Shown here: one piece after another, positions 8,301 to 60,049 of the stretch
Layout of the letters: the number at the start of each line of letters is the position of its first letter
Position numbering within the stretch: position 1 is the first letter of the stretch
Source of the DNA: an uncultured Gammaproteobacteria bacterium
GTDB lineage: Bacteria > Patescibacteriota > Patescibacteriia > SBBC01 > CAIJZX01
Assembly: GCA_964397195.1 (NCBI GenBank)
Contig: CAYNGY010000002.1
Coordinates: 37,239 to 101,238, forward strand
Direction of reading: 5' to 3'
Length of the DNA: 64,000 bases
Position numbers and translations under genes: made by a program
The notes under the pieces: generated by a model
Database searches by the model: none
Seen by the model: only the letters and a program-made list of their open reading frames with translations
What the model was told of the DNA's origin: nothing

Positions 8301-9228
8301 CCAAGGTCTCCCACGTGTTGAAGAGCTCTTCGAAGCGCGTCCGGTGAAAATGCCGGCGATCCTCTCCGATGTAGCCGGTCGGGTGAAAGTTGAGTATGCC
8401 GCCGACCACAAAGTCATTACCATCGAATACCAAGCTTCAGGCCATGATGACTACGATTTCCCGGCTAAGCGCGGGAAGAAGAAGGTTGAGGTCGTTGTAA
8501 CCGACGGCGCAACCGTGAAAGAAGGCGAAGTCCTCTTCACCTTCGGTGAAAAGAAGACAACCGCTGAACGTCCGGGCCTCGTCAAAGTGACCGACGATAC
8601 GGTGACTGTTCACTACGATCATGCCTCGACTCGCAGCATCCCGGTTCCGCCGAACATTCAACTTCGAGTGAAAGATGGCGACCTCGTAGCGCCGGGGACG
8701 GTCCTGACGGAGGGCAGCGTCAACTTGCAGGAACTGTTCGTGCTCCGTGGCCGTGAAGCGGTCCAGAAGTACGTCATTAAAGAAATCCAGTTCATCTATT
8801 CCTCGCAAGGCCAATATCTGAACGACAAGCACATCGAAATCATTGTGCGCCAGATGTTCTCCCGCGCCTATGTCCAATCGGTCGGCAATAGTCAGCTGAT
8901 TGCTGGTGAAGTCGTCGATCGGATTATGGCCGAGAAACTCGGTCGTGACTTGGTGGCGAAGAAGAAGACTGCGCCAGAGATTACACCACTCCTCCTCGGG
9001 GTAACGAAGTCGTCACTGGCGACGGAATCATGGCTCTCGGCAGCTTCGTTCCAAGAAACCGCCCGAGTCTTAATTGATGCGGCGGTGACTGGACGGGTTG
9101 ACTCGCTCCGCGGATTAAAGGAAAACGTGATTATCGGTAAGCTCATTCCGGCCGGAACCGGATTCGAGTCTCGCCAACAAGATACCGTCGTGACGCCGGC
9201 TGACGTCGTCAGCGTCCCAGCGGACTAA
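5350..9228 (+). CDS. rpoC: DNA-directed RNA polymerase subunit beta'
   Basis: 1292-aa ORF. N-terminal zinc motif [23 protein letters not shown], catalytic [12 protein letters not shown], and C-terminal trigger loop/clamp regions. It starts 5 nt after the rpoB stop. Confidence 0.97.
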
Positions 9229-9394: not shown

Positions 9395-11680
9395 ATGGCC
9401 GAAAAGCAACCTCGTCGCCGCGCTTCGGGCGCAGCGAATCCTGAACCGGAACATCCACGACGCCAACCAGCGCCACGCGAGGTGGTCCGCCCAGAAACGC
9501 GTCATGCGGTCCTGGTGGTAATTGTGCTGACCTTTGCGGCCGTTTTGTTGCTGTCGGTTTTTGGTTGGGCTGATACGTTCGGTGATCGGATTAGTGATGC
9601 GTTGGGGACTTTAGTTGGTTGGCAGCGATTCTTAGTGCCGTTCTATGGTTTGTGGCTCGGGATCGTTTTGCTCTTCCCCGAACGGTGGCACATTACCGGC
9701 CCGCGCTGGCTTGGATTCACCCTAACCTTATTGGGCTCGCTCGGGTTGATGCACATGGCGGTGCCGCTAGCCGTCGACGGACAACGTGCTATCGAGGGTG
9801 TTGGCGGCGGGTACATCGGATTTTTGGTCAGTCATGTTCCGCGATCCTCTTTGGGGCCGTGGGCCGGGGGTCTAGTCCTGGCGGCGATGCTGATTATCGG
9901 ATTGTTGATTTTGTTCAATGCCACCCTGCAGTCGCTCTATCGGCGCAGTAATTTGTTTAACGGGTTGACCATGTTGATTCGTCGTTTCCGCTGGCAACGC
10001 CGACTAGCGACGATTCAATCAGAAACAGTTCCGGCGCCGGAATTTCAGGCGACGGAAGTCCCGATCGCCCAATCCGAAACTGACGAGCCGAATGCCGGTG
10101 AACCAGCGGAGGCGGTCGACGAGCCGGACATGGTGCCGTTACCAGTTAAGAAAGAGCGTCGTCCAAAACGTCAGATCACGATCCCGATGGACCTCCTTGA
10201 TTTGGCTGACAGTAAGCCGACCAGCGGGAATATCGAACTGAATAAAGATCGGATTAAAAAGACGCTCGAGAACTTCGGCATCTCCGTCGAGATGGACGAG
10301 ATTCATGTCGGTCCGACGGTCACGCAGTATACACTCAAACCGGCGGATGGTGTGCGTCTGGCGCAGATTGCCTCACTGAAGAATGATATGGCGCTGGCCT
10401 TGGCGGCTCATCCGATTCGGATTGAAGCGCCTATCCCCGGGAAGTCGCTCGTCGGGATTGAAGTGCCGAACCAGTCAATTGCCCTCGTGACCTTGCGCGA
10501 CATCCTCGATACGGAAGAATTCCGTCGCCGGAAATCTGATCTCTCGTTCTCACTCGGGAAAGATGTTTCTGGTCAGCCGTGGGTGGCGAATTTGGAACTG
10601 ATGCCACACTTGCTGATCGCCGGTGCCACCGGGTCCGGGAAATCCGTTCAGATTAACGGCCTGATTATTTCGTTGCTGTATAGTAATTCGCCGGATGACC
10701 TCAAGCTGATCCTGGTTGACCCGAAGCGTGTCGAGTTATCACTCTACAATGACATTCCGCACCTGCTGACACCGGTGATTACTGAGACCACTAAAACGAT
10801 TAATGCCTTACGCTGGGTGGTGTCAGAAATGGATCGACGTTATCAAGTCCTCCAGAACGCACGGAAGCGCAACATTGCCGCCTATCGTCAAGATGTGAGC
10901 GATGATATGCCGTACATCTGTGTGGTCATTGATGAATTGGCGGACCTGATGTCGGTAGCCGCCAATGATGTTGAAGGGATGATTGTCCGTCTGGCCCAAA
11001 TGGCTCGGGCGGTCGGTATTCATTTGATCTTAGCGACGCAGCGGCCATCCGTTGATGTCATCACCGGATTGATTAAGGCCAACATTACCGCGCGCGTCGC
11101 CTTTAGTGTGGCCTCACAGATTGATTCGCGAACGATTCTCGATATGGCTGGCGCCGAATCGCTCCTGGGGAAAGGGGACATGCTCTTTATTTCGGCGGAA
11201 CTTTCGAAACCGAAACGGTTGCAAGGCGCGTATGTGTCCGAAGCGGAAGTCGAGCGGGTGACGAGCTACCTGAAGGCGCGGGGCAAACCTGATTACATGG
11301 CTGAAGTGACCGAAAAGCAACCGGGTGCGCCGGGACAGGGGATTGATGATCTCGGTGAAGACGAATTACTTCCGGATGCAAAAGAGGTGATTGTCCAGTC
11401 GGGTCGGGCATCAACGACGTTACTCCAGCGCCGTCTGCGCGTTGGGTATGCTCGGGCGGCACGGATTATGGATCTCTTAGAGAAAGAAGGCTTCATTGGG
11501 CCGGGTGAAGGGGCGAAGCCACGCGAAATCTACGGCCGTTCGACCGAGCACCCACCGTTTGCGCAAGACCCGCGCGATTTGCCGACGGATACCGGCGACG
11601 ATGTGCCGCTAGCGCCGGAAGAAGAAATTGAGGACGAGGAACCAGAAGATCCGGCGACCACCAACTCGAACCCCGCATGA
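9395..11680 (+). CDS. ftsK: DNA translocase FtsK/SpoIIIE
   Basis: N-terminal TM helices, proline/acidic linker, Walker A LIAGATGSGKSV, and C-terminal winged-helix gamma domain (TTLLQRRLRVGYARAARIMDLLEKEGFIGP). The start is chosen at ATG 9395, in frame with the longer track ORF 9341, because of the promoter just upstream. The start is uncertain. Confidence 0.85.
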   Translation: MAEKQPRRRASGAANPEPEHPRRQPAPREVVRPETRHAVLVVIVLTFAAVLLLSVFGWADTFGDRISDALGTLVGWQRFLVPFYGLWLGIVLLFPERWHITGPRWLGFTLTLLGSLGLMHMAVPLAVDGQRAIEGVGGGYIGFLVSHVPRSSLGPWAGGLVLAAMLIIGLLILFNATLQSLYRRSNLFNGLTMLIRRFRWQRRLATIQSETVPAPEFQATEVPIAQSETDEPNAGEPAEAVDEPDMVPLPVKKERRPKRQITIPMDLLDLADSKPTSGNIELNKDRIKKTLENFGISVEMDEIHVGPTVTQYTLKPADGVRLAQIASLKNDMALALAAHPIRIEAPIPGKSLVGIEVPNQSIALVTLRDILDTEEFRRRKSDLSFSLGKDVSGQPWVANLELMPHLLIAGATGSGKSVQINGLIISLLYSNSPDDLKLILVDPKRVELSLYNDIPHLLTPVITETTKTINALRWVVSEMDRRYQVLQNARKRNIAAYRQDVSDDMPYICVVIDELADLMSVAANDVEGMIVRLAQMARAVGIHLILATQRPSVDVITGLIKANITARVAFSVASQIDSRTILDMAGAESLLGKGDMLFISAELSKPKRLQGAYVSEAEVERVTSYLKARGKPDYMAEVTEKQPGAPGQGIDDLGEDELLPDAKEVIVQSGRASTTLLQRRLRVGYARAARIMDLLEKEGFIGPGEGAKPREIYGRSTEHPPFAQDPRDLPTDTGDDVPLAPEEEIEDEEPEDPATTNSNPA

Positions 11681-12348
11681 TGTTCACCAAGCGTCCGCTC
11701 GCGGGCCAGGAAACGCTCGGTGATCGGTTGCGGCAATTGCGTGAAGAGCGACGGGCGACCCTCGAAGAGGCGTCGAAGGCGGTGATTGTGCCGGCCAAAT
11801 ATCTTGATGCGCTTGAACGAAGCGCGTATACCGAACTGCCGGGCCTCGTCTACGCCCGGAACTTTGTGCGGCAATACGCGACGTGGTTGAGCTTGCCGGT
11901 GGAAACGGCGATGGAAAAGTTTGAGCAAGAATTTCAGGTTGTGCACGGTCGGCGTGTCGAATCACCGCGACTTGTGGCGCGAGCTAAAACCGAGTTTCCG
12001 TGGTATCTGCGTCATGGACGCTTCCTGATCGCTTCGGGGATTATCTTGATCGTCCTCACCTATCTTGTGATTCAGGCGGTACGCTTATTGCGTCCGCCGT
12101 TTATGGAGGTACTTCAGCCATCGACCGATATTTCCATTTCGGAAAACTCGATCGTGGTCAGCGGCCGTACTCAGCCCGGCGTTGAGGTCCGGATTAACAA
12201 CCAACAGACGGATGTCGCGGCGGATGGGACGTTCGTCGAAACGGTTGACCTGCAAACCGGGTTGAATACCCTAAAGATAACCGGACAGCGAAAAATTAGT
12301 AAGCCGGCCGTCGTGGAACGACGGGTGTTGGTGGAGGCGAAGGAATAA
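11677..12348 (+). CDS. RodZ-like protein (N-terminal XRE-type HTH, one TM helix, C-terminal beta domain)
   Basis: HTH segment LGDRLRQLREERRATLEEASKAVIVPAKYLDALERSAY resembles the RodZ N-terminus. A single TM helix (FLIASGIILIVLTYLVIQAV) follows. ATGA overlap with the ftsK stop. Confidence 0.5.
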   Translation: MMFTKRPLAGQETLGDRLRQLREERRATLEEASKAVIVPAKYLDALERSAYTELPGLVYARNFVRQYATWLSLPVETAMEKFEQEFQVVHGRRVESPRLVARAKTEFPWYLRHGRFLIASGIILIVLTYLVIQAVRLLRPPFMEVLQPSTDISISENSIVVSGRTQPGVEVRINNQQTDVAADGTFVETVDLQTGLNTLKITGQRKISKPAVVERRVLVEAKE

Positions 12349-12559
12349 CCACGCGGGGGAAGTGGCTGGACAGCCAACCGTTTACTGTATCATGTGAAAC
12401 TGAAAAAACGCTGAAAAATCCCGTTTCTTCGCTACGTTGAGCGGTTTTTTTGTAAAGCAAAAACCCCAGACCAGATGCCACCATCGCTTGCGCGACGATG
12501 GAATTGGTCCAGGGTATTGCCTGTATCTTTTACGATCCCCGGGGGGAGGGACGGTGCGG

Positions 12560-13078
12560 TTACTTGGTTCTGCTCTGGGCGAGGGGCCCAGGAAGGACGA
12601 CGTTCTCGAAGACGATGGATCGGCCGATGACCTTGCCGACAGGGGCACCTGGTCGACGGCAGTAGACGAGATCGTAGGAGTCGTCTGCGTGTCCGTTGAT
12701 GAAGATGCCGAAGCGGTCGCCGGCGTAGTTCATGTACGGCCTGGCCATCGGGTAGAGGACTTCATCGCGAATCGGCGTCTCGTCCATCAGGCGGACGTTC
12801 GGCCAGCGCGCGGCGTACTTCTTCAGGAAGTAGTCGTCGCCCGGCGAGCCGTAGGACGGCACGGTGCCGTCGATGAACGGGGTGATGGTCGCCGGCAGGG
12901 TGCCGTGCTTGAGCTGGTACTCGGTGATCTCCAGTGCGAGCTCGGTGACCGCCAGATTCTGCTGGCTTACCTCGAACTGGTGACGCAGGTTGGCGACCTC
13001 GATGTTCTGACTGCGGAACTGGGTTCCGATCCAGATCAGACCGAGGACCGCGAGAATGTAGAGAGCGACGATCTTCAT
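12560..13078 (-). CDS. hypothetical signal-anchored or secreted protein (172 aa)
   Basis: N-terminal hydrophobic segment MKIVALYILAVLGLIWIG. SD GGAGGA lies 3-4 nt upstream of the ATG. The overlapping plus-strand ORF 12437-13135 is D/E/R/G-rich antisense noise. Confidence 0.6.
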   Translation of the reverse strand: MKIVALYILAVLGLIWIGTQFRSQNIEVANLRHQFEVSQQNLAVTELALEITEYQLKHGTLPATITPFIDGTVPSYGSPGDDYFLKKYAARWPNVRLMDETPIRDEVLYPMARPYMNYAGDRFGIFINGHADDSYDLVYCRRPGAPVGKVIGRSIVFENVVLPGPLAQSRTK

Positions 13079-13179
13079 GATTCCTCCGTACGGGCGGAAG
13101 TGGTCAGGCTTGGTGCGTCTAGCGCGTCGGGGTGACGCGGTAGATCACCGGGGCGATGATGCCGAGGGTGGAGGCGCGC

Positions 13180-13365
13180 CTAGTCCTTCATGAAGTTGTA
13201 CTCCAGGTCGGACGGCGGTTCACCGTACTTCTTCTTCATCGCGGCGATATGCGTTTCACAGGCCATCGCACCGCCAGCGATCCCGACCGCCCGACCTTCG
13301 CCATTCCAGCGCGGGTCGAGCTTGCTGGTGACCCACCAGCTGCCTTCGCGAATTCCGAAGTCCAT
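13180..13365 (-). CDS. hypothetical small protein (61 aa)
   Basis: ORF preceded by SD AGGAGGA 8 nt upstream. High GC3 like its neighbours. Confidence 0.45.
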   Translation of the reverse strand: MDFGIREGSWWVTSKLDPRWNGEGRAVGIAGGAMACETHIAAMKKKYGEPPSDLEYNFMKD

Positions 13366-13393
13366 GTCTGTGTCCTCCTGATGGCGGTCGATT

Positions 13394-14095
13394 CTACTTC
13401 TGGCGGTAGACGAACCAGACCTCGTCCTTCCCGTTGATGGTGAAGACCGCCATCGTGACGTTGTCGATCTGGGTGCCGTGCTCGATGAGCCAGTGGTCCA
13501 GGTCGCCGGCGTTCTGGAAGACCTTCGCTCTGTAGCCTGGCTCCTCGCCCGGCTTGGGTGGAGGCTGGTAGCCCTGTTCCAGGCAAGGCACGATCACGGT
13601 TCGGGCCAGCGTCGCCGGGTCATCGGACTTGGAATTCGTCCGGATGGTAGCCGGTGGCGCGTAGCGGACGCGGTTCACGGGCACGTCGCCGCCGAACTGG
13701 TACTCCTGCAGGCGCTCCCATGATTCTGCGACCGCGCTCAGGGCCTTCCAGGTCGACGTGTAGCGAGTGCCGATGTTGGAAGACTCCTTGGCGTTCAGAC
13801 CCTTCCAGACGACAGCCAGACACGGGTTGGTGGTGTCACTGCCAGCGGCCGGAAACACGAACAGGTTGTAGCGCAGGTCTCTGGTCCCCAGGGCACCGCG
13901 GTAAGGAGCGGGCTGGAGGGTAGCATACCCGTACAGGCGGAAGGCCCGCCGGTGACCGAGCGCGTTGACGACGGTGACGTTGAAGCCCTCGATTCGGGAC
14001 TTGTAGTACCCGTCGATGGCGCCCTGGCTCGGCGTGGTGATGACACCGAGTGCCATGACCACGATCAGCAGGGTGATGCCGATGCTTGATTTCAT
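13394..14095 (-). CDS. hypothetical secreted protein (233 aa) with N-terminal signal peptide
   Basis: Signal-peptide-like N-terminus MKSSIGITLLIVVMALGVITTPSQGA. SD context GGAGGAATCATGAA is identical to that of the 12560-13078 gene. Its start overlaps the stop of the upstream receiver gene (ATGA). Confidence 0.65.
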   Translation of the reverse strand: MKSSIGITLLIVVMALGVITTPSQGAIDGYYKSRIEGFNVTVVNALGHRRAFRLYGYATLQPAPYRGALGTRDLRYNLFVFPAAGSDTTNPCLAVVWKGLNAKESSNIGTRYTSTWKALSAVAESWERLQEYQFGGDVPVNRVRYAPPATIRTNSKSDDPATLARTVIVPCLEQGYQPPPKPGEEPGYRAKVFQNAGDLDHWLIEHGTQIDNVTMAVFTINGKDEVWFVYRQK

Positions 14096-14481
14096 GATTC
14101 CTCCGGGTTGAGGAGCTCCGTCACCTGCGCGATCAGTTCGCGCGGGCTGAAGGGCTTCGCCATGAAGCGGTGGGCGCCGGCCGCGCAGTACGATCGTCCG
14201 TCAACGTCCGAAGGCTCGGGCGTGGTCAGGACGATAACCTTGATATGCCGGAACGCGGCCCAGGCGACCGTTGCGGTGAGTAGCTCGGGTCCGTTGCCGC
14301 GGTTGAGACGCGGGTCGATGATGATGACGTCGGGCGACGTGCGCTTCAGCTCGATCAGCGGGTTACTTGACCGGCTGATGATGACGACTTCGAAGCCTTG
14401 GTGGCGACTCAGTCGGTAGTCGAGCAGATCCGCATGCTTCGGATCATCGTCGATGACGGTGATACGTCGTTTGTTAGTCAT
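14092..14481 (-). CDS. stand-alone response-regulator receiver (CheY-like REC domain)
   Basis: Starting at MTNKRRITVIDDD (ATG at 14481, SD GGAGGG) it has all REC hallmarks: the DDD acid pocket, phospho-acceptor Asp in VIIIDPRL, Thr in VIVLTT and Lys in AKPF. There is no output domain. The track ORF extends to 14571, but the upstream extension lacks an SD. Confidence 0.75.
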   Translation of the reverse strand: MTNKRRITVIDDDPKHADLLDYRLSRHQGFEVVIISRSSNPLIELKRTSPDVIIIDPRLNRGNGPELLTATVAWAAFRHIKVIVLTTPEPSDVDGRSYCAAGAHRFMAKPFSPRELIAQVTELLNPEES

Positions 14482-14911
14482 GCGCCCTCCGTGGCACGTA
14501 GGTGGTAGGAAAGACGAGGCGGCGTCCGGTGTAGTAGAGCAGTGCGACCATGGCGAGCGCCATGATGACACCGAAGAACTGATCGGGTGCCCAACTGCTT
14601 TGCCACTGGTTCCAGGTGCGGATGTTCACGAGCATGACCATCGCGAACCAGAAACAGCCGGTGTGAATGCCGTAGTCGCGTCGGTACATGATGCGAATCA
14701 TCAGCACCGACGTGAGGACGGCGAGAGTCCACGCGCCGTAGATCATGAAGATGCTCGGCGCGCCTTCCACCAGCTCATTGTAGCCCTCGGCGCCGTCGGG
14801 GAACCATTCCCAGAACTGGTTTTGCCAGTTCCAGAGAGCGGCGCCGATGACGGCGAGAGTGAAGGCGGCGAAAAGACGAGCGATGCCGAACGCATACTGC
14901 TTGAGAGTCAC
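14474..14911 (-). CDS. hypothetical integral membrane protein (about 4 TM, 145 aa), GTG start
   Basis: Four hydrophobic helices, W/F-rich. SD GGAGGAG 4 nt upstream of the GTG start. Its 3' end overlaps the receiver gene start by 8 nt, so they are co-transcribed. Confidence 0.6.
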   Translation of the reverse strand: MTLKQYAFGIARLFAAFTLAVIGAALWNWQNQFWEWFPDGAEGYNELVEGAPSIFMIYGAWTLAVLTSVLMIRIMYRRDYGIHTGCFWFAMVMLVNIRTWNQWQSSWAPDQFFGVIMALAMVALLYYTGRRLVFPTTYVPRRAHD

Positions 14912-15094
14912 GGGACTCCTCCGTTTTTTATGACCGGGCGAGGGAGATCACCGGTCGTTGTCAATGGTCGACGCGACCCTCGCTTGAACTCACCAGTCTA
15001 ATGAGCAGAAAAGACTGATGAGTCCAAGTGAAGATCCGGCGGCGGACTCGCGTGTTACTGCGAGTCCGCCGTCAGAGTGCGGGTTGAATATCTT

Positions 15095-15211
15095 CTACCA
15101 CCGACTAGGGTCTTTGACCTTCGTCCAGTCGATGTTCTTCGGACGCGTTCGCCAGACGCCGATAGCGTAGATGGCGAGCATAGCCACCGCGAGAATGTCC
15201 GACCACTTCAT
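15095..15211 (-). CDS. possible small membrane protein (38 aa: MKWSDILAVAMLAIYAIGVWRTRPKNIDWTKVKDPSRW)
   Basis: Short ORF not in the supplied track. Found by eye, it has one hydrophobic helix and a GGAAAGG SD-like sequence about 9 nt upstream. A strong 11-bp hairpin lies downstream at 15041-15070. Confidence 0.3.
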   Translation of the reverse strand: MKWSDILAVAMLAIYAIGVWRTRPKNIDWTKVKDPSRW

Positions 15212-15245
15212 GGGTTGGCCTTTCCGCGGCAAGGGGGGGGTGGTG

Positions 15246-15401
15246 TTACGCGGCCGCTTGGCCGAGTTCCTTCTCGAGGGTAGCGATCCGATAGCGCAGT
15301 TTCTCGCGCTCCCGTTCGCCGCCTTCGCCTTCCCGATCGTTCTCGTTCAACTCCGCGAGGAGTCGGTCGAGATCGGCCTGGATCTCTGTGCGCGTGCGCA
15401 T
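15246..15401 (-). CDS. hypothetical small charged coiled-coil protein (51 aa)
   Basis: Internal ATG of track ORF 15246-15674 has strong SD GAGGAG 6 nt upstream. The product is MRTRTEIQADLDRLLAELNENDREGEGGEREREKLRYRIATLEKELGQAAA. It starts 12 nt after the stop of the upstream membrane-protein gene. Confidence 0.4.
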   Translation of the reverse strand: MRTRTEIQADLDRLLAELNENDREGEGGEREREKLRYRIATLEKELGQAAA

Positions 15402-15412
15402 GTCGTTCTCCT

Positions 15413-15808
15413 CTAGAGTTGCGGCCAGCGGAAGAAACAGTTCAGGAGCAACAGGATGCCGATGATCTTGCCGATCAGCGTGATGACGTAGCGCGCGATC
15501 TCGGTTTCGTGGCCGAGGTCGTACTCGAACGTCCGATGATCGCCCATTTCCTTGTTCAGGGCGGTCGCGATGCGCTTCAGCGACGAGATGGTGTTGCCGC
15601 AGTGCGTGGCCATACTCAGACCGAGCACTGCCGCCACGACGCCGGCCATCCAGCCGAGCGTGTAGTTGTGCCACACGTGGTTGGTGACCCAGGCGACGGG
15701 AACCATCAGGATCGCGATCATGAAGAAGATCGTGAAGATGATGAGTTCGAGGCGGAAGACTTCGTACTGCTTGAGCAGTGAGCGGATGTAGATCTCATCC
15801 TGATCCAT
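15413..15808 (-). CDS. hypothetical membrane protein (about 131 aa from MDQDEIYIRSLL...)
   Basis: Start chosen at the ATG with SD GGAG 6 nt upstream. Two to three TM helices (LELIIFTIFFMIAILMVPVAWV; GWMAGVVAAVLGLSMA; ITLIGKIIGILLLL). Confidence 0.55.
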   Translation of the reverse strand: MDQDEIYIRSLLKQYEVFRLELIIFTIFFMIAILMVPVAWVTNHVWHNYTLGWMAGVVAAVLGLSMATHCGNTISSLKRIATALNKEMGDHRTFEYDLGHETEIARYVITLIGKIIGILLLLNCFFRWPQL

Positions 15809-15893
15809 TTGCACTCCTCGGCGGCTTGAGCCGCGAATGGGTAGTGGCGTGGACAGCGAGTCCGTTTCGAAGATATTCGTGAGAGTTAAGGTG

Positions 15894-15979
15894 CGACTCT
15901 CGTTTGAAGGTTTCAATGGTTGAAACTCTCAAACGAGAGTCCCAGTACCGGCTGTCCTTGTCGGACTTCCGGTACTGGG
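15894..15979 (-). repeat. tandem perfect inverted repeats (nested 13-bp + 7-bp hairpin, then an 11-bp hairpin) between two co-oriented island genes
   Basis: First hairpin: GACTCTCGTTTGA (15894-15906) pairs with TCAAACGAGAGTC (15929-15941), enclosing the inner stem GTTTCAA/TTGAAAC. Second hairpin: CCCAGTACCGG (15941-15951) pairs with CCGGTACTGGG (15969-15979). Neither is followed by a U-tract. Confidence 0.7.
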
Positions 15980-15995
15980 ATGATCTCATCTACAT

Positions 15996-16451
15996 CTAGA
16001 TGAACTCGTACTTCGGGCCGTTGGCGAAGATGGCGCGCGTGTACCAGCGACGACCCTGTTGGTCGAAGTACTGCAGGTCGACACGCTCGACGCCCTCGGA
16101 ACGGTCCGGCAGGTAGCTGAAGTTCAGCTTACCTCGGCAGGCCTTGCCGCCGGTGTCCTGGTGGCACTCGATACGCTGGCCGCTGTCGGGATCGTTGAAC
16201 TCGAGGTAGTCCTTCGAGAACATGCTCATGACCTCGAAGATGCTCCGCGGGAGCTGACCGTTGTTGTTGACTCGGAAGTTCTCGACCTTGTCAGCCATCC
16301 GGTTCATGGTGTTGACCAGGGACTCGTGCCGATGCCCGGCCTGGCTCCGTACGAGCTGCGTCTGAGTCTCCTTGAGCCGACGCAGAAGGTACGTGCTGTA
16401 CATGGCGGCGGCAACACCGAAGATAGCGAGGATGAACACGGAAATGCTCAT
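15996..16451 (-). CDS. hypothetical N-terminally anchored protein (about 151 aa)
   Basis: Start at the second ATG (MSISVFILAIFGVAAAMYSTYLL) with SD GGGAGA. One TM helix followed by a hydrophilic domain. Confidence 0.55.
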   Translation of the reverse strand: MSISVFILAIFGVAAAMYSTYLLRRLKETQTQLVRSQAGHRHESLVNTMNRMADKVENFRVNNNGQLPRSIFEVMSMFSKDYLEFNDPDSGQRIECHQDTGGKACRGKLNFSYLPDRSEGVERVDLQYFDQQGRRWYTRAIFANGPKYEFI

Positions 16452-16662
16452 GAAGTCTCCCATGCTTGACCGGATCTATCCGGGGCGGGTTGGAGTGGCG
16501 AAGACGACGAGTTTATTGTAGATGAGAGTAGAAAGAACAAACTCTATCTCTCGCATAACGTGACCACGTGGTGATCAGGTTGTGCGAGAGGCCCGGAACC
16601 ACTCCTTCCGATCTTGTCGGGAGTTTGGTTCTGGGCCGAACGAAGGTGCTCTCGCGGAATGC

Positions 16663-16911
16663 CTAGTAGGTGCGCGTCTCGGCGCGATTGGTCTCGCGGT
16701 GGAGCGAGACGGCCAGCCAGAGTACGCCGGTTCCGATCACGGTGACGAACAGCGCGGCCGGGAAGAGGCGGGGGTCGGCACTGTAGTCCTTGATGGCCGA
16801 GTAGACGCCGTAGAGGCCGAGCGCCGCGATCGCCGTCCCGAAAACGGACAGGACCGCGGACAGCATGTGACGACCGAACTTCTGGTCAGGCGTGAGGCGG
16901 AGCGTCGACAT
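16663..16911 (-). CDS. hypothetical small membrane protein (82 aa, 2 TM)
   Basis: Two hydrophobic helices. SD AGGTAGGA upstream. The overlapping plus-strand ORF 16582-17064 is D/E/R/G-rich antisense noise. Confidence 0.5.
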   Translation of the reverse strand: MSTLRLTPDQKFGRHMLSAVLSVFGTAIAALGLYGVYSAIKDYSADPRLFPAALFVTVIGTGVLWLAVSLHRETNRAETRTY

Positions 16912-17136
16912 GGATTCCTACCTTTCGGTGAGGGGCGGGTGATACGAAAAAACGCGTTGCGGCGACAAATCCCGGAGCAGGTTTATCACAACAACGCGTT
17001 TTTCACATATCGTGTCCGACGTCTGCTCACGTGGCACGAAGCGGGTATATTTAAAGAACAGTAGATTATACGCTTGGCGGCGAAAAATGTCAAGAGTAAG
17101 GGCGTGGCGACGGATCGTATTTGGCTAATTATAGCC

Positions 17137-17159
17137 AAAAAAACCCAGCCGAAGCTGGG
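17137..17159 (-). terminator. rho-independent terminator for the RNase III-like gene (minus strand)
   Basis: On the minus strand: CCCAGC-ttcg-GCTGGG followed by TTTTTTT (plus-strand 17137-17159 reads AAAAAAACCCAGCcgaaGCTGGG). Confidence 0.7.
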
Positions 17160-17184
17160 GGTAGGGTGGGGTTCTTGGGCCCTG

Positions 17185-17982
17185 CTACTTCCGAATTTCG
17201 GCGAGCAGGCGCGTCAGCGCGAATTCTCGAGCGCGAGACGGATTGGGGGACTTGCCGCGAGTGAGGCATCCGTTCAGCTTGGCCGTGCAGTGGTAGACGG
17301 CGTTCCTCGGACCACCGCGTCGACGATTCTGGATCCGTGGTACCGGGTAGCCGTGTTGACGGGCGTAGATGACGAGTGCGGCCCACGGATTGAGGCGGCG
17401 GCCGTTGACGGTCGTAGGTGTGACCTCCAGCAGATCCTCCGGTCGGTGGTCGTTCCCTTGGTCAGTTGTGACCTCATGGCCGTTCGTGACCGGGATGGTC
17501 GTTGGCAGGGGATGTCTCAGCACGTACGGCAGGTACCGTTCGATGACGTAGGCCTCAGCCGCAGCGACTCCTTGGTGGCGGTCGATGATGGCGAGGACGC
17601 ACTCGAAGGTTGTGCCGAGAGTGTGGTCAGCTTTCCGTGCGTTGCGGCGCGATCCCGTCAGTTGGCGAGCGAGATTCGCGACGCCGATGTGGCCGAGATA
17701 GGTCGCCATGCACCCGTTCGTCGTGACATGGTCAACCCACGTCGGGTCGAGACCATGCGCCGATCCGTTCTTATTGAACCAACGTCGAAGCGCGAGCTCA
17801 ACGATCGAATCGCCGATGAACGAGAGCGCTTTCCGAGTGTCTTCGTAGGGCAGTGGGTGACGTTCGCCCGACTGGCCGGTGATGATGATCCGGATCCAGT
17901 CAGTCGACAGGTCGGGTAGCCCAAGCTGCGTCCTGATGACGCCGAAGAGCGCATTTCGCGTCGATCCATTTGCGGTTCCCAA
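17185..17982 (-). CDS. RNase III-like protein (catalytic-domain-like region, about 60-aa insert, C-terminal dsRBD), TTG start
   Basis: KALSFIGDSIVELALRRWF matches the RNase III signature ERLEFLGDAxLEL. HTLGTTFECVLAIIDRHQG matches ADxFEAxxGAIYLD. The C-terminal segment NPWAALVIYARQHGYPVPRIQNRRRGGPRNAVYHCTAKLNGCLTRGKSPNPSRAREFALTRLLAEI is dsRBD-like. SD AAGGAG lies 7 nt upstream of the TTG start. Confidence 0.6.
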   Translation of the reverse strand: MGTANGSTRNALFGVIRTQLGLPDLSTDWIRIIITGQSGERHPLPYEDTRKALSFIGDSIVELALRRWFNKNGSAHGLDPTWVDHVTTNGCMATYLGHIGVANLARQLTGSRRNARKADHTLGTTFECVLAIIDRHQGVAAAEAYVIERYLPYVLRHPLPTTIPVTNGHEVTTDQGNDHRPEDLLEVTPTTVNGRRLNPWAALVIYARQHGYPVPRIQNRRRGGPRNAVYHCTAKLNGCLTRGKSPNPSRAREFALTRLLAEIRK

Positions 17983-18164
17983 GGTGCACTCCTTGTGTGT
18001 CGGTCCGTGCTACGGGAGTAGAACGGTGCTCCTGCCTCAAGCCTAGGCTCGTTTCGCGGTATCGTCAAGGATACTTTCGGTATGTGGAAAACTGGTATTT
18101 ACGGTTCGGTTATTATTCCCCGGCTCGCGGGCCGGGGCAGGCTAAACCTTAGAAAATCAGGGTC

Positions 18165-18194
18165 TTGACGCTTCGGTTATTATTCGGGTATCAT
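18165..18194 (+). promoter_or_regulatory. putative recA promoter (TTGACG-N18-TATCAT), overlapped by the second copy of a 15-nt direct repeat
   Basis: -35 TTGACG at 18165-18170 and -10 TATCAT at 18189-18194. The repeat TTCGGTTATTATTCS occurs at 18105-18119 and 18172-18186. Confidence 0.45.
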
Positions 18195-18260
18195 ATATAT
18201 ATTAGTCCCGACTGAGCCCGATAGTGGCTAGACGGAGACACTAACCGAAAGGAAAAACAT

Positions 18261-19364
18261 ATGGCCAAAGGCCACAAGGCGTCCGCTTCTTCACCGGCGG
18301 GCAAGGAAAAAAATGATGCCGCGTTAGCCGCGATCGAGCGGATTCGCGAGCGCTTTGGTGAGGGATCGATCATGAAGTTCAGTGAAGCCCGGGCGACTGA
18401 TGTCGATGTCGTCAGTACGGGTTGCTTGTCGTTAGATCTGGCGTTGGGTGTTGGTGGTGTGCCACGCGGACGGATTATTGAAATCTTTGGACCGGAAGCG
18501 TCGGGAAAAACAACACTCGCACAGCATATCGTAGCCGAGGTACAGAAGGCGGGTGGGACGGCGGCCTTCGTTGACGCCGAACATGCGCTTGATCCAAGCT
18601 ATGCCAAGAAAATTGGGGTGAATGTCGATGATCTTTTGATCTCACAGCCAGATTCCGGCGAGCAGGCTCTGGAGATTGTCGAAACCTTGGTGCGATCGAA
18701 CGCCGTGGACGTGGTGGTTGTTGACTCGGTGGCGGCGTTAACGCCAAAAGCGGAAATTGAAGGTGAGATGGGCGACTCACACATGGGTCTGCAAGCGCGG
18801 CTGATGTCGCAGGCGTTACGGAAGCTGACGGCCATTGTGTCCAAAACACGAACGATCATTATCTTCATCAACCAGACGCGCATGAAGATCGGTGTCTTCT
18901 TCGGAAATCCGGAAACCACGACCGGTGGGACGGCCTTGAAGTTCTACTGTTCGGTCCGAATTGAAGTTCGCCGCATTGGTCAGCTGAAACAGGGTGACAA
19001 GATTGTCGGGAACCGGACGAAAGCAAAAGTGGTGAAGAATAAAGTCGCCGCGCCGTTCCGCCAAGCCGAATTCGATATCATGTACAATCAAGGGATCTCG
19101 CTGGTCGGTGACGTGCTTGATACGGGATTGCTCTACGGTGTTTTGCAGAAGTCCGGAAACACCGTCAGCTTTGGAGAAACGAAGTTTGGTGTTGGCCGTG
19201 AGGCGTGCAAGCAGTATTTGCAAGACAACGCCAAGGTGATTAACGAGATTCGAGAGGCGGTCTTGAGGGTAGCTAAGGAGCGCCAGGCCGAAGACGACCT
19301 GTCCGGCCGTGCGCCGAGCGTGCCCGAACCGGAGGCGGCGGCTGAGGCACCGGTGACGGAATAG
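18261..19364 (+). CDS. recA: recombinase RecA
   Basis: Walker [10 protein letters not shown] and a classic RecA core ([23 protein letters not shown]). Confidence 0.96.
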
Positions 19365-19370
19365 TCAGAA

Positions 19371-19402
19371 ACAAAAACGACGGCCAAGCGGCCGTCGTTT
19401 TA
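19371..19402. terminator. bidirectional rho-independent terminator between recA (+) and efp (-)
   Basis: AAAAACGACGGCC-aagc-GGCCGTCGTTTT. A 9-bp GC-rich stem flanked by an A-run and a T-run. Confidence 0.7.
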
Positions 19403-27114: not shown

Positions 27115-27660
27115 ATGCACGAAGAACGTGAATCCAACGATTTGGAAATCTTGGCCGCCGCTCAGCGCGGTGACCAATCGGCCGTCCGCGCCCTCTATGA
27201 TCGGTATGCAACCTTCGTCTTTCATTGGGTTGCCCGGCGGGTCGATCGCCGTGAAGATGCCGAAGATTTAACCGCGGATATCATGTTACGCATGGTCGAG
27301 GCACTACCGACAGCAAAACCAACTGCTACCTTTAAGGCCTGGCTCTTCGGCATCGGTCGACATGTGCTGGCTGATTTTTGGCGAACGACGTATCGCTTGC
27401 CTGAAGCTGAGCTAATCCCGGAGCTACTCGGTGCCCCTGGCGATGAGCCCGATCCACAGGATGATGGGAGTCTGCGGGCAAAAGCGGAGGAAGTAATTGC
27501 ACAGTTGCCTGACCAGTATCGAGCGGTTCTCGAACACCGTTTTTTTCATCTCCATACCATAGCCGAGACAGCGACGGCGATGGCCACCTCAGAGGGGAAC
27601 GTCAAAGTTCTCCAGTATCGCGCTCTCAAAAAAGCCGCTGAATTAGCTGCACGCGTATGA
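27115..27660 (+). CDS. ECF-type RNA polymerase sigma-70 family factor
   Basis: 181 aa from the ATG at 27115. Region 2 LEILAAAQRGDQSAVRALYDRYATFVFHWVARRV...DLTADIMLRMV, and region 4 LPDQYRAVLEHRFFHLHTIAETATAMATSEGNVKVLQYRALKKA. The stop overlaps the next start (ATGA). Confidence 0.8.
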   Translation: MHEERESNDLEILAAAQRGDQSAVRALYDRYATFVFHWVARRVDRREDAEDLTADIMLRMVEALPTAKPTATFKAWLFGIGRHVLADFWRTTYRLPEAELIPELLGAPGDEPDPQDDGSLRAKAEEVIAQLPDQYRAVLEHRFFHLHTIAETATAMATSEGNVKVLQYRALKKAAELAARV

Positions 27661-30600
27661 GCAACCCACACGACCAGATTAACGATTACCTCGAATACAT
27701 CGCCGGTCGCCGTAAAAAGGCACCGTCTCTATCCGTCGAGGATCAGGATGTTCTGAGGGCGATGCATTTATTGCGCCATGCACGGCCACACACCGATCCC
27801 CGTCCAGAATTTATTTCCACCTTAGGACAGAAAGTTATGAGCCAACAGCCGCGGCCACAGACGTTATCGAAAAAACAAGTAGTTCATGCAGCACCAACGT
27901 GGTCGGTATCTTGGTGGTGGCTACGGTTAGCGCCAGTAATGGCGACGGCGGCGATTGTCTTGGCAATGGTACAGCTCCCGGCCGGGGTCAACGACTTCAA
28001 CTGGACGCTTTTCCGAAAGTCAGTGATTCAGGAAGCATCGGCGGCGACGATTACCTTGGTGGCGGCCGATACGACTGCCACGGGTATTTCGCCGACAACT
28101 GCTTTCGTGGTGACAGGCAAAGATGGGACGTTGACCGAAGAGATGGTCAGGAAGAATCTGGTGTTTTCGCCAACGATTGATGCCGAGATTCAGGCGGCGG
28201 GTGATAATACCTACCGACTCATCCCAAAGACCGCCCTCGATCAGTCGGTGGTGTATGCGGCGACGTATGCTGGACAAGCGAAGGCAACGGATGGGACGCT
28301 TCAGGCCCGAAATTATTCATGGGCCTTCCAAGTCCGCCGTGATTTTATTGTGATCGGGACGTACCCACGCGACGCCGCGACCTATGTTGAGATCACATCC
28401 GGGTTGGATATCACATTCTCGAGCGGAGGTGTCAGCGTTAAGGATTTTGAAAAAGCACTTTCCATAGTGCCGGCCACGCCCCATACGATTGAGATTCACG
28501 GCCGGACGATGTCGATTATACCGAAAAACCCGTTACAGGAGCGCACTATCTATACCGTGACGATTAAGGCCGGGCTCCACCCGGACAAAAGTACGATGTC
28601 GCTAGCTGATGATGTAGTGACGCGGTTCGAGACCGGCACGAAAGACGGGTCGGGAACGACAACAGCGTTTCATTCACGATCTGCATTTGAGACCGTCGCA
28701 CCAGGGGATTCGATTTACTTCTCCGACAGCGCTGTTCCGGGCGACGCGTCAAACGGAACAAAGGACTGGAAAACCAGTTACGAGTTTGCGATTTATTCAT
28801 TCCCGTCGCTCGAGACCTTCAAAAAAGCTATTGAAACGCGGTTAGAACATGCGTTCGGCTGGGCATCGTTCAATGAGATGCCATTAATGACGGTGACAGG
28901 ATTAAGTAAGGTGGCGACCGTGAAGACTGTTTCGCATGACGGCGTGATGAGCTTGCCAAAATCTTTTGCGCCGGGCGCATATGTGGCCGAGACAATGGTT
29001 GGCGGGGTGCGGACGCAAATGCCGTTCATCGTATCGGATATTAGTAACTACACCATGTCCACAGCCACCGATACGGTCGTGTGGGTCCATCACCTTTCCA
29101 CCAAAAAACCGGCGGTCGGCGCAACTATTACCTTGGCCGACAATACCACCGTTAAGACGGATCAAGAAGGATTGGCTCGTTTCCCAACGCCAAGCGCTCT
29201 CGGACAGTCTGGCGCACCAAATATGGTGGTTCGCATCGCCGTTGGAACAACTGAAACGCTCAGCGTTCTTGCGGCTTCAAACTCGGGCTCAATATACTAC
29301 GGCCGGAATTACACCAGCCTTGATAACTACTGGGCGTACCTGACAACCGATCGTAGCCTGTATCGTCCGACTGATACGGTTCACTTTTGGGGGTTACTAC
29401 AACCACGAGACACACGCGCAGCGGTCGAGAAGGTCAGCGCGCGCTTAGTGGTGACGAACTGGGATCGGGGTGGAGCGGAGACGGTGATGAAAGAGGTGCC
29501 CGTGACGTTAACCGCCGACCATACATTTATCGGCGAGATCCCGCTTCGTGAAGCTTCAGTTGGTTGGGGCAAGGAATTGCGGATCTATGTCGGCGAGCAA
29601 TGGGTCATGACCCGCTATCTTGATGTGCAGGTATTTCAGACCCCGGCGTATCAGCTGAGCGTCACATCAGACAAGCCGGCAGTCTTTGATAACGAGGAAG
29701 TGACCTGGACGGTTCGGGCCTCGTTCTTTGATGGTACGCCGGTCCCAAATCTCAAAGTAAAATTGACCACCAACGGTGAATATACACTGACGACAAATGC
29801 TGCCGGTATGGTCTCGAAGAAAGTTCGGTTGACCATGGCACAGGGCGGATCGGCATCAGCGGTTCCCGTGGATGACGCGACGAATAATATTCAGGGGTGG
29901 GGCTATGTGACGGTTTATCCGGCCGCGCGTTCCATTATCGCTACAAGCTCGACGACGGATTCGACGGTTAAAGTATCTGGAACCGTACGGACGGTAAACC
30001 CAACGAAAGTTGATATGGCCGCTAGCAATCCGTTCGCGGCAGTTGTAGGCGATCCGGTGGCGAACGCTACGGTTCACGTGCGCCTGATCAAAACAACCTA
30101 TACGGCGGTGAAAAACGGTCAGGTCTATGATTTCCTGACGAAACAAGTCGTGCCGAAGTATCAATATACTTCGAGTGAAGCCGATAGAGAGGCCTTAGAT
30201 GTGGTGACCGATGGTGACGGAAAGTTCCAATACACATTTACCGCTGAGGATTTGTCGGGCTATCGTGTTGAGTTAACAACTACGGATGAGGCTGGGCGGA
30301 CAGAGTCGCAAACGCTGTTCCCATGGTTTTCTTATCCGAGTGACGCCCCGGCATTTTCCCTGACAACTTTCCAGCCATTGAACACGCCGTGGAAAGTTGG
30401 TGATGCGGTGACGCTTTCGATTGTCGGAACAAAAAAACAGGAAGAGGCGCCGAAGCATCTCGCGTATCTCTACATGCTGAGCCAACGCGGACTGAAAACG
30501 GCCGACGTCAGCGCAAAATCAACGCTCGATCACATTTTTACTGAAGCTGATGTGCCGAATGTGAGCGCTCGCGCCGTTGTGTTCACGGGTACCGGATATA

Positions 30601-59959: not shown

Positions 59960-60049
59960 GGAGGCGTGCTAGAGTGGTTGAATAGGCGTCCCTGGAAAGG
60001 ACGTATACCTGCAAAGGTATCGAGGGTTCGAATCCTTCCGCCTCCGCCA
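59960..60049 (+). tRNA. tRNA-Ser (anticodon GGA), class II with long variable arm, CCA encoded
   Basis: GGAGGCG acceptor, D-arm CTA/TAG, anticodon stem CGTCC/GGACG with loop CTGGAAA (GGA), variable arm TATACC-tgcaaa-GGTATC, T-arm GAGGG-TTCGAAT-CCTTC, 3' CGCCTCC-G-CCA. The antisense ORF 59949-60188 translates the typical AEAEGFEP artefact. Confidence 0.85.

Follow-up and report, generated by a model that had tools for sequence, protein, structure and literature searches.

What long, nearly perfect hairpins do between the genes of a bacterial operon is the question raised by positions 15894-15980 of the window, by which we mean the whole 64,000-nt stretch of DNA analysed. The hairpins sit inside a ~4.6-kb block of ten genes on the minus strand, predicted to form one transcription unit and located between ftsK plus an HTH gene and recA (Table 1). 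An initial annotation had placed them between co-oriented, probably co-transcribed genes, and their position between co-oriented genes was borne out, with one promoter-like site and one U-tract terminator-like hairpin on that strand. We infer co-transcription, 3′ ends and read-through of the operon, the first of these from the single promoter with 12/12 consensus matches and from the lack of further promoter-like sites on the operon's strand within the island. Since the genes lie on the minus strand, so does the RNA, which corrects the earlier description; all hairpin modules fall within non-coding spacers, for which minus is the transcribed strand.

The operon is foreign and horizontally acquired, in a probable Patescibacteria chromosome, with a GC3 of 0.75-0.90 versus 0.60-0.64 and with products that are orphan, mostly hydrophobic small proteins. 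No homologues were found for the four products searched (gene B, gene F, the 233-aa protein and the RNase III-like ORF), and Pfam gave no match for the 172-aa and 61-aa products. A phage origin was considered and rejected, as neither megablast nor blastn matched the island to any phage record and the PHROGs match was to a receiver domain only; a plasmid origin was likewise rejected, plasmid searches giving generic response-regulator matches only. Viral contigs scanned with the hairpin patterns and with gene A and gene D alignments also yielded nothing.

Table 1. Positions of the operon, its hairpin modules and adjoining features in the window, listed in the direction of transcription.
Feature	Position	Strand	Description
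RNase III-like ORF	17185-17982	minus	upstream of promoter; own terminator 17144-17159 + T7
Promoter, sigma-70-type	17065-17093	minus	TTGACA, 17 nt, TATAAT; 12/12 consensus matches; conserved in L001 and L084
Leader hairpin	16946-17004	minus	~26 bp including 5 G-U, then U-tract; conserved in three loci
Gene A	16663-16911	minus	82 aa; two hydrophobic segments by eye; 58% identical to L084 879-1127
GCGAGAG segment upstream of A-B hairpin I	16646-16652	minus	can instead pair with start of hairpin II
Hairpin I, A-B module	16590-16637	minus	GGCCC.GAACCA ... UGGUUC.GGGCC; orthologue L084 819-855
Hairpin II, A-B module	16546-16590	minus	CUCUCGC ... GCGAGAG; diverged member, R1 22.3 bits, E = 0.0013
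Gene B	15996-16451	minus	151 aa; hydrophobic N-terminus by eye; orphan; L084 has unrelated gene X there
Hairpin I, B-C module	15941-15980	minus	12-bp perfect stem, 2x2 internal loop, 4-bp apical stem
Hairpin II, B-C module	15894-15941	minus	14 bp + A x C mismatch + 7 bp = 21 bp; loop CCA
Post-module spacer to gene C ATG	15809-15893	minus	unstructured, C-rich/G-poor (C/G 1.8); ribosome-binding site GAGGAG
Gene C	15413-15808	minus	131 aa; hydrophobic segments by eye; absent from compared L084 part, which ends within D′
Gene D	15246-15401	minus	51 aa; charged and helical by eye; 59% identical to L084 8-166
Gene E	15095-15211	minus	38 aa; one hydrophobic segment by eye; start codon and ribosome-binding site read
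Hairpin I, E-F module	15040-15071	minus	12-bp perfect stem, 8-nt loop
Hairpin II, E-F module, long form	14975-15036	minus	24 bp including 4 G-U; 12-nt loop with CUGCUC
Gene F	14474-14911	minus	145 aa; hydrophobic segments by eye; orphan
Distal operon genes, whole block	12560-14571	minus	
Receiver-domain protein	14092-14571	minus	start uncertain
233-aa protein	13394-14095	minus	hydrophobic N-terminus
61-aa protein	13180-13365	minus	
172-aa protein	12560-13078	minus	
Operon terminator	12464-12514	minus	nested hairpin then U-tract; strand-specific, -33.6 vs -19.9 kcal/mol

The spacer between genes B and C holds two abutting, near-perfect hairpins, confirming the tandem long hairpins first reported at 15894-15979 and extending them to 15980. 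The outer stem of hairpin II is a perfect 13 bp, with arms GACTCTCGTTTGA (15895-15907) and TCAAACGAGAGTC (15929-15941), and encloses the 7-bp stem GTTTCAA/TTGAAAC with a loop of 3 nt; both are as originally described. The adjoining perfect stem, previously given as 11 bp, is in fact 12 bp (TCCCAGTACCGG, 15940-15951, and CCGGTACTGGGA, 15969-15980), with a 4-bp stem nested inside, and the stem-base sequences of the pair read GGGACUCUCG / CGAGAGUC. On the transcribed strand hairpin I (-29.6 kcal/mol) begins 15 nt past the gene B stop, and its terminal GGG touches hairpin II. The RNA fold of 15809-15995 on the minus strand has an energy of -82.1 kcal/mol, compared with -46.5 ± 4.3 for shuffles (z = -8.2), and 15931-15990 is the most stable of ~6400 60-nt windows across the 64 kb. 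These back-to-back hairpins are one copy of a repeated bipartite spacer module.

Other long spacers are also folding outliers relative to shuffled sequence (z = -4.5 for 16452-16662, -7.6 for 14912-15110 and -5.7 for 16912-17184). Perfect stems of at least 11 bp number four in 14900-17010 against 0.02 expected, a count reached by 0/300 dinucleotide shuffles, so that the enrichment on which the original proposal was staked does hold; the entire window contains seven. The ORFs that overlap the hairpins have a GC3 of 0.57-0.58 and thus do not carry the island GC3 signature, which rules out a coding role for them and identifies the spacer as non-coding. Two further ideas were dropped: GAGTC/GACTC enrichment in the stems, which family members do not conserve, and a diversity-generating retroelement or template/variable repeats, for which no significant direct repeats were found.

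Comparison of the copies defines the module as a variable GC-rich hairpin I, ending GGG or GGCC, followed after 0-2 nt by a conserved hairpin II. Three copies occur in the window (after genes A, B and E) and three in two related metagenomic loci (L084 and L001). The module begins 15-25 nt past stop codons and lies 25-97 nt ahead of the next start. The hairpin II helix is of the order of 18-24 bp (21 in the B-C module, 24 in E-F and 16-22 in the other copies), with the rough consensus CUCGCUYGAGCG.UUCAGU...ACUGGA..GCUCAAGCGAG. Scored with a covariance model (R1), the B-C hairpin II is a member of this family at 69.6 bits and its E-F paralogue reaches 64.9 bits. For the A-B module, the nested stems earlier assigned to 16581-16652 require revision: the pairing with 16646-16652 is possible, but family comparison favours the alternative in which the GCGAGAG arm (plus-strand 16584-16590) pairs with CTCTCGC at 16548-16554 as hairpin II. 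The claim that the hairpins form a family therefore emerges stronger than it was made, with the long hairpin homologous in three window spacers and two related loci and showing compensatory substitutions.

Helix II is maintained by such substitutions over six copies in three loci. With three sequences, 7/25 pairs carry double changes; with six, 16/28 pairs are compensatory and 84.6% of cells are paired, versus 26-42% when the partner is slid, a pairing statistic that 0/500 shuffles reach. Outside its building set, R1 matches window 16543-16597, L084 771-826 and L001 9056-9127 (E ~5e-8). Within the 64 kb the model detects no copy outside 14970-16597, and the 15 other Patescibacteria loci contain none; nor did a copy turn up in the viral, phage or plasmid collections searched. 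It took alignment with L084 and the covariance model to reveal the homology among modules; blastn-short for the repeat family within the window gave nothing convincing. Rfam has no match at gathering thresholds in the window, and over 12300-18300 only chance-level matches (E ~2-3). It is highly improbable that the hairpins are operators, other protein-binding DNA palindromes or functionless chance palindromes. Both the shuffles and the conservation with covariation rule out chance. The operator proposal of the initial annotation draws on the palindromic character of the sequences as DNA, and a separate, perfect 18-bp palindrome does lie beside the promoter at 17121-17138; the proposal is weakened in that neither the size of the module palindromes (39 bp for hairpin I, 47-62 bp for hairpin II) nor their location, 1-2 kb into the operon and well away from the sole promoter, is operator-like.

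Terminators are the most familiar hairpins at the ends of genes, and the window contains several candidates. The leader hairpin looks like a terminator or attenuator and is distinct from the intercistronic modules. It has a CUGCUC loop and is accompanied by a complementary invariant GAGCAG 12-mer. It had been counted at 16966-17007 as a further hairpin of the kind that lacks a U-tract; the element really occupies 16948-17003 and carries a U-tract on the transcribed strand, and so is terminator-like and of a different kind. Other terminator-like hairpins read in the window lie after the HTH gene (12429-12444), after the RNase III-like ORF, between recA and efp (19374-19401) and at the end of the operon. 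All of these carry T/U tracts, whereas the hairpin II trails do not. The B-C hairpins have the GC-rich stem-loop of a canonical intrinsic (L-shaped) terminator, but the 10-nt trail past 15894 on the transcribed strand, GCACCUUAAC, contains 2 U and the E-F trail, GCGUCGACCA, contains 1 U, compared with the >3 U in a 10-nt trail applied by WebGeSTer (PMC3013805). Terminator stems are typically 7-14 bp (PMC3013805), and the module helices are longer. The geometry, with 0 nt between hairpins and a start 15 nt past the gene B stop, does fit the I- or V-shaped non-canonical terminators of WebGeSTer DB (PMC3013805), a descriptive class derived from prediction in which V-shaped examples are rare (1,615 of ~1.2 million predicted); the other terminator-like hairpins of the window are L-shaped with a U-tract.

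The module most likely shapes the operon mRNA, as a new version of an element type that is already familiar. More specifically, the leading reading, to which we give about even odds, is an intercistronic RNA element that combines an exonuclease barrier with a partial, factor-dependent terminator. Acting in the polycistronic mRNA as a segment boundary, its stable helices would block 3′-to-5′ exonucleases, fixing where the preceding cistron ends on its 3′ side and shielding that end, and helices and the C-rich, G-poor unstructured spacer together would cause partial, factor-dependent attenuation of read-through. Such boundaries could give rise to differing expression levels along the operon. A double-strand RNase that cuts the ~two-turn helix II may initiate the process, although the model does not need such a cut. 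The genome encodes RNase J, and all six copies lie in the same orientation relative to the conserved promoter, both in line with this reading. Post-module spacers have a C/G of 1.3-2.5 in 5/6 cases, and the largest C-over-G stretch of the island lies in the A-B spacer. A protective stem-loop without a U-tract and with a rut site directly after it has been described (PMC6061677); the arrangement here shares the stable U-tract-less stem-loop soon after a stop codon and the ensuing C-rich, G-poor unstructured stretch, but differs in that the element is bipartite, conserved and repeated within an operon. The L001 copy comes after the leader and not after a gene, so that protection of a preceding cistron cannot be the role of every copy.

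REP elements offer a second comparison. REPs occur in both orientations throughout a genome, in association with RAYT transposases. The module resembles REP/BIME sequences in consisting of repeated palindromic units, often in tandem, between co-transcribed genes, and in the proposed upstream-biased expression through partial termination and protection from decay. It differs in being seen in one locus type and one orientation, with no REP sequence similarity and no transposase domain in the island ORFs scanned, and the suggestion that the hairpins are REP-like is weakened by the confinement of all copies to this locus in the window and their absence from the 15 other Patescibacteria loci. For REP325 of Enterobacteria, a dual role as terminator and stabiliser has been shown (bioRxiv 10.64898/2026.03.23.713779).

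Helices of this length also suggested dsRNA processing. That hairpin II is a site at which an island-linked RNase III-like protein, or the host RNase III, separates cistrons is in our judgement unlikely. In the longest copies the helices reach about two turns, a length that fits such a site, and are stacked end to end with hairpin I; similar hairpins recur between cistrons, as in phage T7; and an RNase III-like ORF lies directly upstream in both the window and L084, where its C-terminus is conserved. The ORF was originally assigned to the same block. It does adjoin the operon and match Pfam, but forms a separate transcription unit, and every score is below the gathering cutoff: over residues 50-152, three related RNase III models gave 23.7 bits for PF00636 (cutoff 27), 21.3 for PF20614 (33.9) and 14.6 for PF14622 (35), with E-values of 8.8e-5, 4.6e-4 and 0.038. 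There was no homologue in 5.8 billion proteins, no PDB sequence match and no detectable double-strand RNA-binding domain; the AlphaFold2 single-sequence model was unusable (pLDDT 38), and by eye the ORF appears to keep only part of the acidic catalytic signature. Moreover, the part of L001 compared has a module but no such gene. In T7, the host RNase III cuts sites that contain a characteristic internal loop. The likeness to these signals lies in related ~two-turn hairpins between the cistrons of a long transcript, in a foreign or mobile block with a candidate RNase III-type gene nearby; the differences here are the near-perfect helices, the sub-threshold nuclease assignment and the absence of phage genes. 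Correia repeat-enclosed elements of Neisseria are co-transcribed palindromic inserts that RNase III can bind, cleave or protect, altering adjacent expression (PMC2649163). Like the module, they are small, hairpin-forming palindromic units co-transcribed with their neighbours, but they are high-copy, bounded by terminal inverted repeats and able to create promoters (PMC2649163), features not seen here.

The GCGAGAG segment upstream of the A-B hairpin I raises a further alternative, in which the module is a conformational RNA switch: the CUCGC-type 5′ arm of hairpin II would pair either with its own 3′ arm or, in competition, with a segment preceding hairpin I, and the two alternative folds would control read-through or how the next cistron is translated. 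In 6/6 modules the 30 nt preceding hairpin I include 6-9 nt complementary to the start of hairpin II, and GCGAG recurs upstream in the A-B, A′-X and L001 modules. Fisher combination of the per-module p-values (0.016-0.23) gives ~0.003 in a test chosen post hoc, but individually the values are mostly unremarkable. In every module the combination of hairpin I and hairpin II is preferred by minimum-free-energy folding, no ligand- or protein-binding pocket is evident and the ribosome-binding sites are not sequestered. We consider a switch very unlikely.

Returning to the intercistronic RNA element, strand preference does not clearly separate a role in RNA from one in DNA. Summed over the module hairpins, the energies are -299.6 kcal/mol on the transcribed strand versus -295.4 on the other, with 13 versus 14 G-U pairs, and hairpin I tends toward greater stability on the non-transcribed strand. 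The leader hairpins and the operon terminator, in contrast, strongly favour the transcribed strand (4-5 G-U versus 0-1). The lack of a net strand preference is the pattern expected of a DNA palindrome and to that extent speaks against the RNA reading, and compensatory change is equally expected if a palindrome is maintained at the DNA level.

A role in DNA is also to be weighed, in which sites of recombination or mobility, formed by the modules or by hairpin II alone, would bound exchangeable cassettes behind a conserved promoter-leader platform. Such an element would resemble an integrase-less integron, or a REP/MITE-like palindrome supplying portable homology. Although rather unlikely, this rival is kept because gene content differs between relatives exactly at the modules: the order in the window is A-[module]-B-[module]-C-D and in L084 A′-[module]-X-[module]-D′, so that cassette content varies at the repeats (B and C versus X, between A/A′ and D/D′), as seen in two loci only. 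A and A′, like D and D′, share 58-59% identity; blastn detects no DNA in common. Hairpin II after B (69.6 bits) and after X (67.0 bits) are the closest pair in the family, despite differing hairpin I sequences and upstream genes. L001 keeps the promoter, the leader and one module yet has different cargo, which is foreign by GC3 in both L001 and the window. An 11-nt inverted repeat flanks gene B, and each locus has a nuclease-type gene next to the platform, which is a DUF559 gene in L001 and the RNase III-like ORF in the other two.

Several features speak against this DNA-level role. With just two or three genomes to compare, the differences in gene content can be explained by ordinary homologous recombination or by deletion. 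A scan of ten island ORFs revealed no integrase, transposase or RAYT-like domain; all six modules share a single orientation relative to the conserved promoter; and, as noted, R1 finds no copies beyond the locus in the window or in the 15 other loci. Integron attC sites are single imperfect hairpins with extrahelical bases and R″/R′ core sites, and go with an adjacent tyrosine-recombinase integrase, IntI. With integron cassette arrays the island shares a conserved promoter platform, co-oriented promoterless small orphan genes, palindromic repeats and cargo that varies at the repeats. It differs in that the ORFs scanned contain no IntI domain, that no R″ (RYYYAAC) or R′ (GTTRRRY) cores are visible at the hairpin bases, and that each module has two separate near-perfect hairpins. 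The most specific version, that the ftsK/HTH-recA locus of some Patescibacteria is an integrase-less integron-like platform with hairpin II as the cassette junction (a recombination site or portable homology block), is distinctly unlikely. According to it, the consensus promoter and structured leader would drive exchangeable, foreign orphan-gene cassettes, and hairpin II would possibly be acted on by the adjacent nuclease-type gene (RNase III-like, or DUF559 in L001).

Intercistronic stem-loops that set relative expression within operons are already well known. The present one is a bipartite module conserved in sequence and structure, which belongs to no Rfam family and whose relatives, as far as detected, are confined to one variable locus. 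It sits where relatives swap foreign orphan membrane-protein genes, in an uncultivated lineage of the candidate phyla radiation. At the RNA level it would provide a testable handle on mRNA processing and decay where RNA biology is essentially unstudied, and at the DNA level it would point to a new means by which foreign genes are captured and then expressed from one fixed promoter. Either way, further loci can be sought with covariance model R1 and the conserved leader. In the genome collection the leader pattern had 0 matches and a recA scan placed the organism near Patescibacteria MAGs at 72-75% amino-acid identity, with no island-bearing locus; a metagenome scan with the HTH protein found nothing. 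It was a search with the leader pattern that recovered L084 and thereby enabled the comparative analysis.

The two abutting hairpins in the spacer between genes B and C of the minus-strand island operon lie exactly where the initial annotation had placed them (15894–15980, window plus strand). Folded as minus-strand RNA, this spacer (15809–15995) reached –82.1 kcal/mol compared to –46.5 ± 4.3 in dinucleotide shuffles (z = –8.2); the remaining long spacers of the block were likewise outliers (z = –4.5, –7.6 and –5.7), and the 60-nt window with the greatest stability in the 64 kb is 15931–15990. Within 14900–17010 there are four perfect stems 11 bp or longer, compared to 0.02 in shuffles; the total for the window is seven. 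Given these stability outliers and the excess of perfect stems, the enrichment over shuffled sequence on which the original claim had been staked is present. The spacers are non-coding, since ORFs overlapping the hairpins lack the GC3 signature of the island.

Stems and component hairpins of the modules (window plus-strand coordinates)
Feature	Position	Reading	Remark
13-bp stem	GACTCTCGTTTGA 15895–15907 with TCAAACGAGAGTC 15929–15941	plus strand	encloses inner 7-bp stem
Abutting second stem	TCCCAGTACCGG 15940–15951 with CCGGTACTGGGA 15969–15980	plus strand	
Hairpin I of E–F module	15040–15071		
Hairpin I of A–B module	16590–16637		

Spacer alignment revealed that the long hairpin (15894–15941) is homologous to 14975–15036 in the same operon and to 283–325 of L084, a 1.7-kb contig ~70% identical to the island, obtained by scanning metagenome contigs with a leader-derived pattern. 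In this three-sequence alignment 88.7% of cells pair, compared to 21–45% with the partner slid, and two-sided changes occur in 7 of 25 pairs. A covariance model trained on the three aligned sequences matched, outside that training set, window 16543–16597 (22.3 bits), L084 771–826 (23.4 bits) and 9056–9127 (39.1 bits, E ~5e-8) of L001, a syntenic metagenomic contig with ~75% nucleotide identity in core genes; neither the rest of the 64 kb nor a set of 15 other recA loci from Patescibacteria yielded a further copy. Across the six-member alignment 84.6% of cells pair (26–42% slid), compensatory changes affect 16 of 28 pairs, and 0/500 shuffles reach any of five measures. This conserved hairpin (II) is preceded in all six cases, at a gap of 0–2 nt, by a differing GC-rich hairpin (I) ending GGG or GGCC, and the orientation relative to the conserved promoter is identical in all copies. 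Because of the homology of hairpin II and the presence of a preceding hairpin I in every copy, the hairpins at 15894–15980 represent one copy of a bipartite module. The element is real, non-random and conserved, and the "family" proposed initially is confirmed and sharpened into a module with covariation.

The other hairpins listed alongside required some reassignment. That at 16581–16652 contains hairpin I of the A–B module, and its outer GCGAGAG stem offers the 5′ arm of hairpin II another pairing partner; comparable complementarity upstream is seen in 6/6 modules (Fisher-combined p ~0.003, our own combination in a post hoc test). The description "U-tract-less" holds for the modules but not for 16948–17003, a hairpin common to three loci whose 4–5 G–U pairs render it transcribed-strand-specific and which is followed by a U-tract; from its sequence, it appears to be a leader terminator or attenuator distinct from the modules. 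The leader behind the consensus promoter is conserved (window 16945–17093, minus strand; L001 9208–9340; L084 1156–1300) and has no Rfam match. Its invariant 12-mer CGUGAGCAGACG (plus-strand 17020–17031) shows complementarity to the CUGCUC motif in the loop capping the U-tract hairpin (16946–17004), a motif also present in the apical loops of both long-form hairpin II copies (window ~15003, L001 ~9089); this arrangement could be an attenuator, pseudoknot or small RNA. An 18-bp perfect palindrome, TTGGCTAATTATAGCCAA (17121–17138), is located upstream of the island promoter, ~27–44 nt from its –35 hexamer, and shares bases with the T-run of the terminator before it. Conservation of the half-sites in L001, and in part in L084, makes this palindrome a candidate operator or activator site.

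The window is bacterial chromosome, with the order rpoB, rpoC, ftsK, an HTH_25 gene, island, recA, efp and S6, and the nearest RecA sequences are from Patescibacteria MAGs (72–75% identity). The island genes occupy the minus strand at GC3 0.73–0.90, compared to 0.60–0.64 in core genes, which marks the block as foreign. Only one promoter-like site, a perfect TTGACA-17-TATAAT (17093–17065), occurs on the island strand, followed by the leader hairpin with its U-tract, genes A–F, a gene for a receiver-domain protein and a further three small genes; a nested hairpin with a U-tract (~12464–12514) closes the unit. No homologues of gene B, gene F, the 233-aa protein or the RNase III-like ORF upstream were found in databases of billions of proteins.

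Several features favour an RNA element that would mark segment boundaries within the polycistronic mRNA. Modules start 15–25 nt after stop codons and leave ribosome-binding sites uncovered; they lack U-tracts, and the terminator-like hairpins read in the window, including that at the operon end, have T/U tracts. The post-module spacers are unstructured, with C/G of 1.3–2.5 in five of six. This stem-loop followed by a C-rich spacer matches the arrangement reported for Rho-dependent 3′ ends, at which protective stem-loops precede rut sites (PMC6061677), and for REP325, which acts both as a partial terminator and as a stabiliser (bioRxiv 10.64898/2026.03.23.713779); geometrically, the modules also fall into WebGeSTer's rare "V-shaped" category (PMC3013805). 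In kind, the module belongs with intercistronic stabiliser/attenuator hairpins, as a new family that is restricted to one locus type, in a lineage about which little is known. An RNase J gene (38572–40338, minus strand) encodes beta-CASP and C-terminal domains, and its presence bears on the influence that structured transcript ends, 5′ and 3′, would have on mRNA decay here.

A double-strand RNase may cleave the 18–24-bp hairpin II. Support for the neighbouring ORF (17185–17982, minus strand) as RNase III is weak: its three Pfam hits are all sub-threshold, it lacks homologues, its structure model is unusable, and no such gene occurs in the L001 sequence examined, although the module is present there. 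L084 conserves the C-terminus of the ORF, whose GC3 is 0.73. The ORF is absent from the protein collection, even as a self-match, so the source annotation probably did not call it.

Covariation is equally expected for an RNA helix and for a palindrome maintained in DNA, and a less probable but more interesting possibility is that the module marks exchangeable gene cassettes at the DNA level. Summed over the module hairpins, the transcribed strand has no net advantage over the other (–299.6 versus –295.4 kcal/mol; 13 versus 14 G–U pairs), in contrast to the operon's leader and terminator hairpins, which strongly favour the transcribed strand. Moreover, cargo differences among the window, L084 and L001 coincide with modules. 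L084 comprises the RNase III-like C-terminus, terminator, promoter, leader, A′, a structured spacer, X, a structured spacer and D′, where A′ and D′ share 58% and 59% identity with their window counterparts and X is unrelated; A-[spacer]-B-[spacer]-C-D in the window therefore corresponds to A′-[spacer]-X-[spacer]-D′. Within the family, the two hairpin II copies most alike are those that follow B and X, two unrelated genes. L001 lacks the island genes and retains the promoter, leader hairpin and upstream palindrome, with promoter and leader predicted from sequence to drive other small genes. Gene B, together with part of its upstream spacer, is bracketed by an 11-nt perfect inverted repeat (ATGTAGATGAG and its complement, 15984–15994/16517–16527; chance expectation roughly 0.02–0.1 for these spacers), which may be a trace of insertion. 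An integron-like system is nevertheless disfavoured by the single orientation and single locus type of all copies, with no integrase or transposase domain among the island ORFs scanned and no attC core sites visible. Of the earlier DNA-level suggestions, the REP-like reading is weakened and the operator reading unlikely.

In L001, an inverted pair of ~80-nt nested palindromes (8326–8403 and 9808–9889; core CCCCTCCTTAGWAAGGAGGGG within 16–20-bp outer arms) brackets the entire variable region, in which a DUF559 endonuclease-like gene lies together with the promoter, leader and module; the window lacks this core. Upstream of recA, a 25-nt direct repeat (18094–18118/18161–18185, 88% identity) overlaps, in its second copy, a promoter-like site, TTGACG-18-TATCAT. 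Directly after tRNA-Ser (59960–60049), the very GC-rich, highly structured segment 60050–60400 (z = –5.2) contains a second copy of part of the tRNA 3′ end (GAAUCCUUCCGCCUC), possibly a duplicated attachment site that marks an integrated element. Finally, 27657–32765 encodes a 1702-aa alpha-2-macroglobulin-like protein (A2M, MG2 and bMG3 domains) in an apparently small-genome Patescibacteria lineage.
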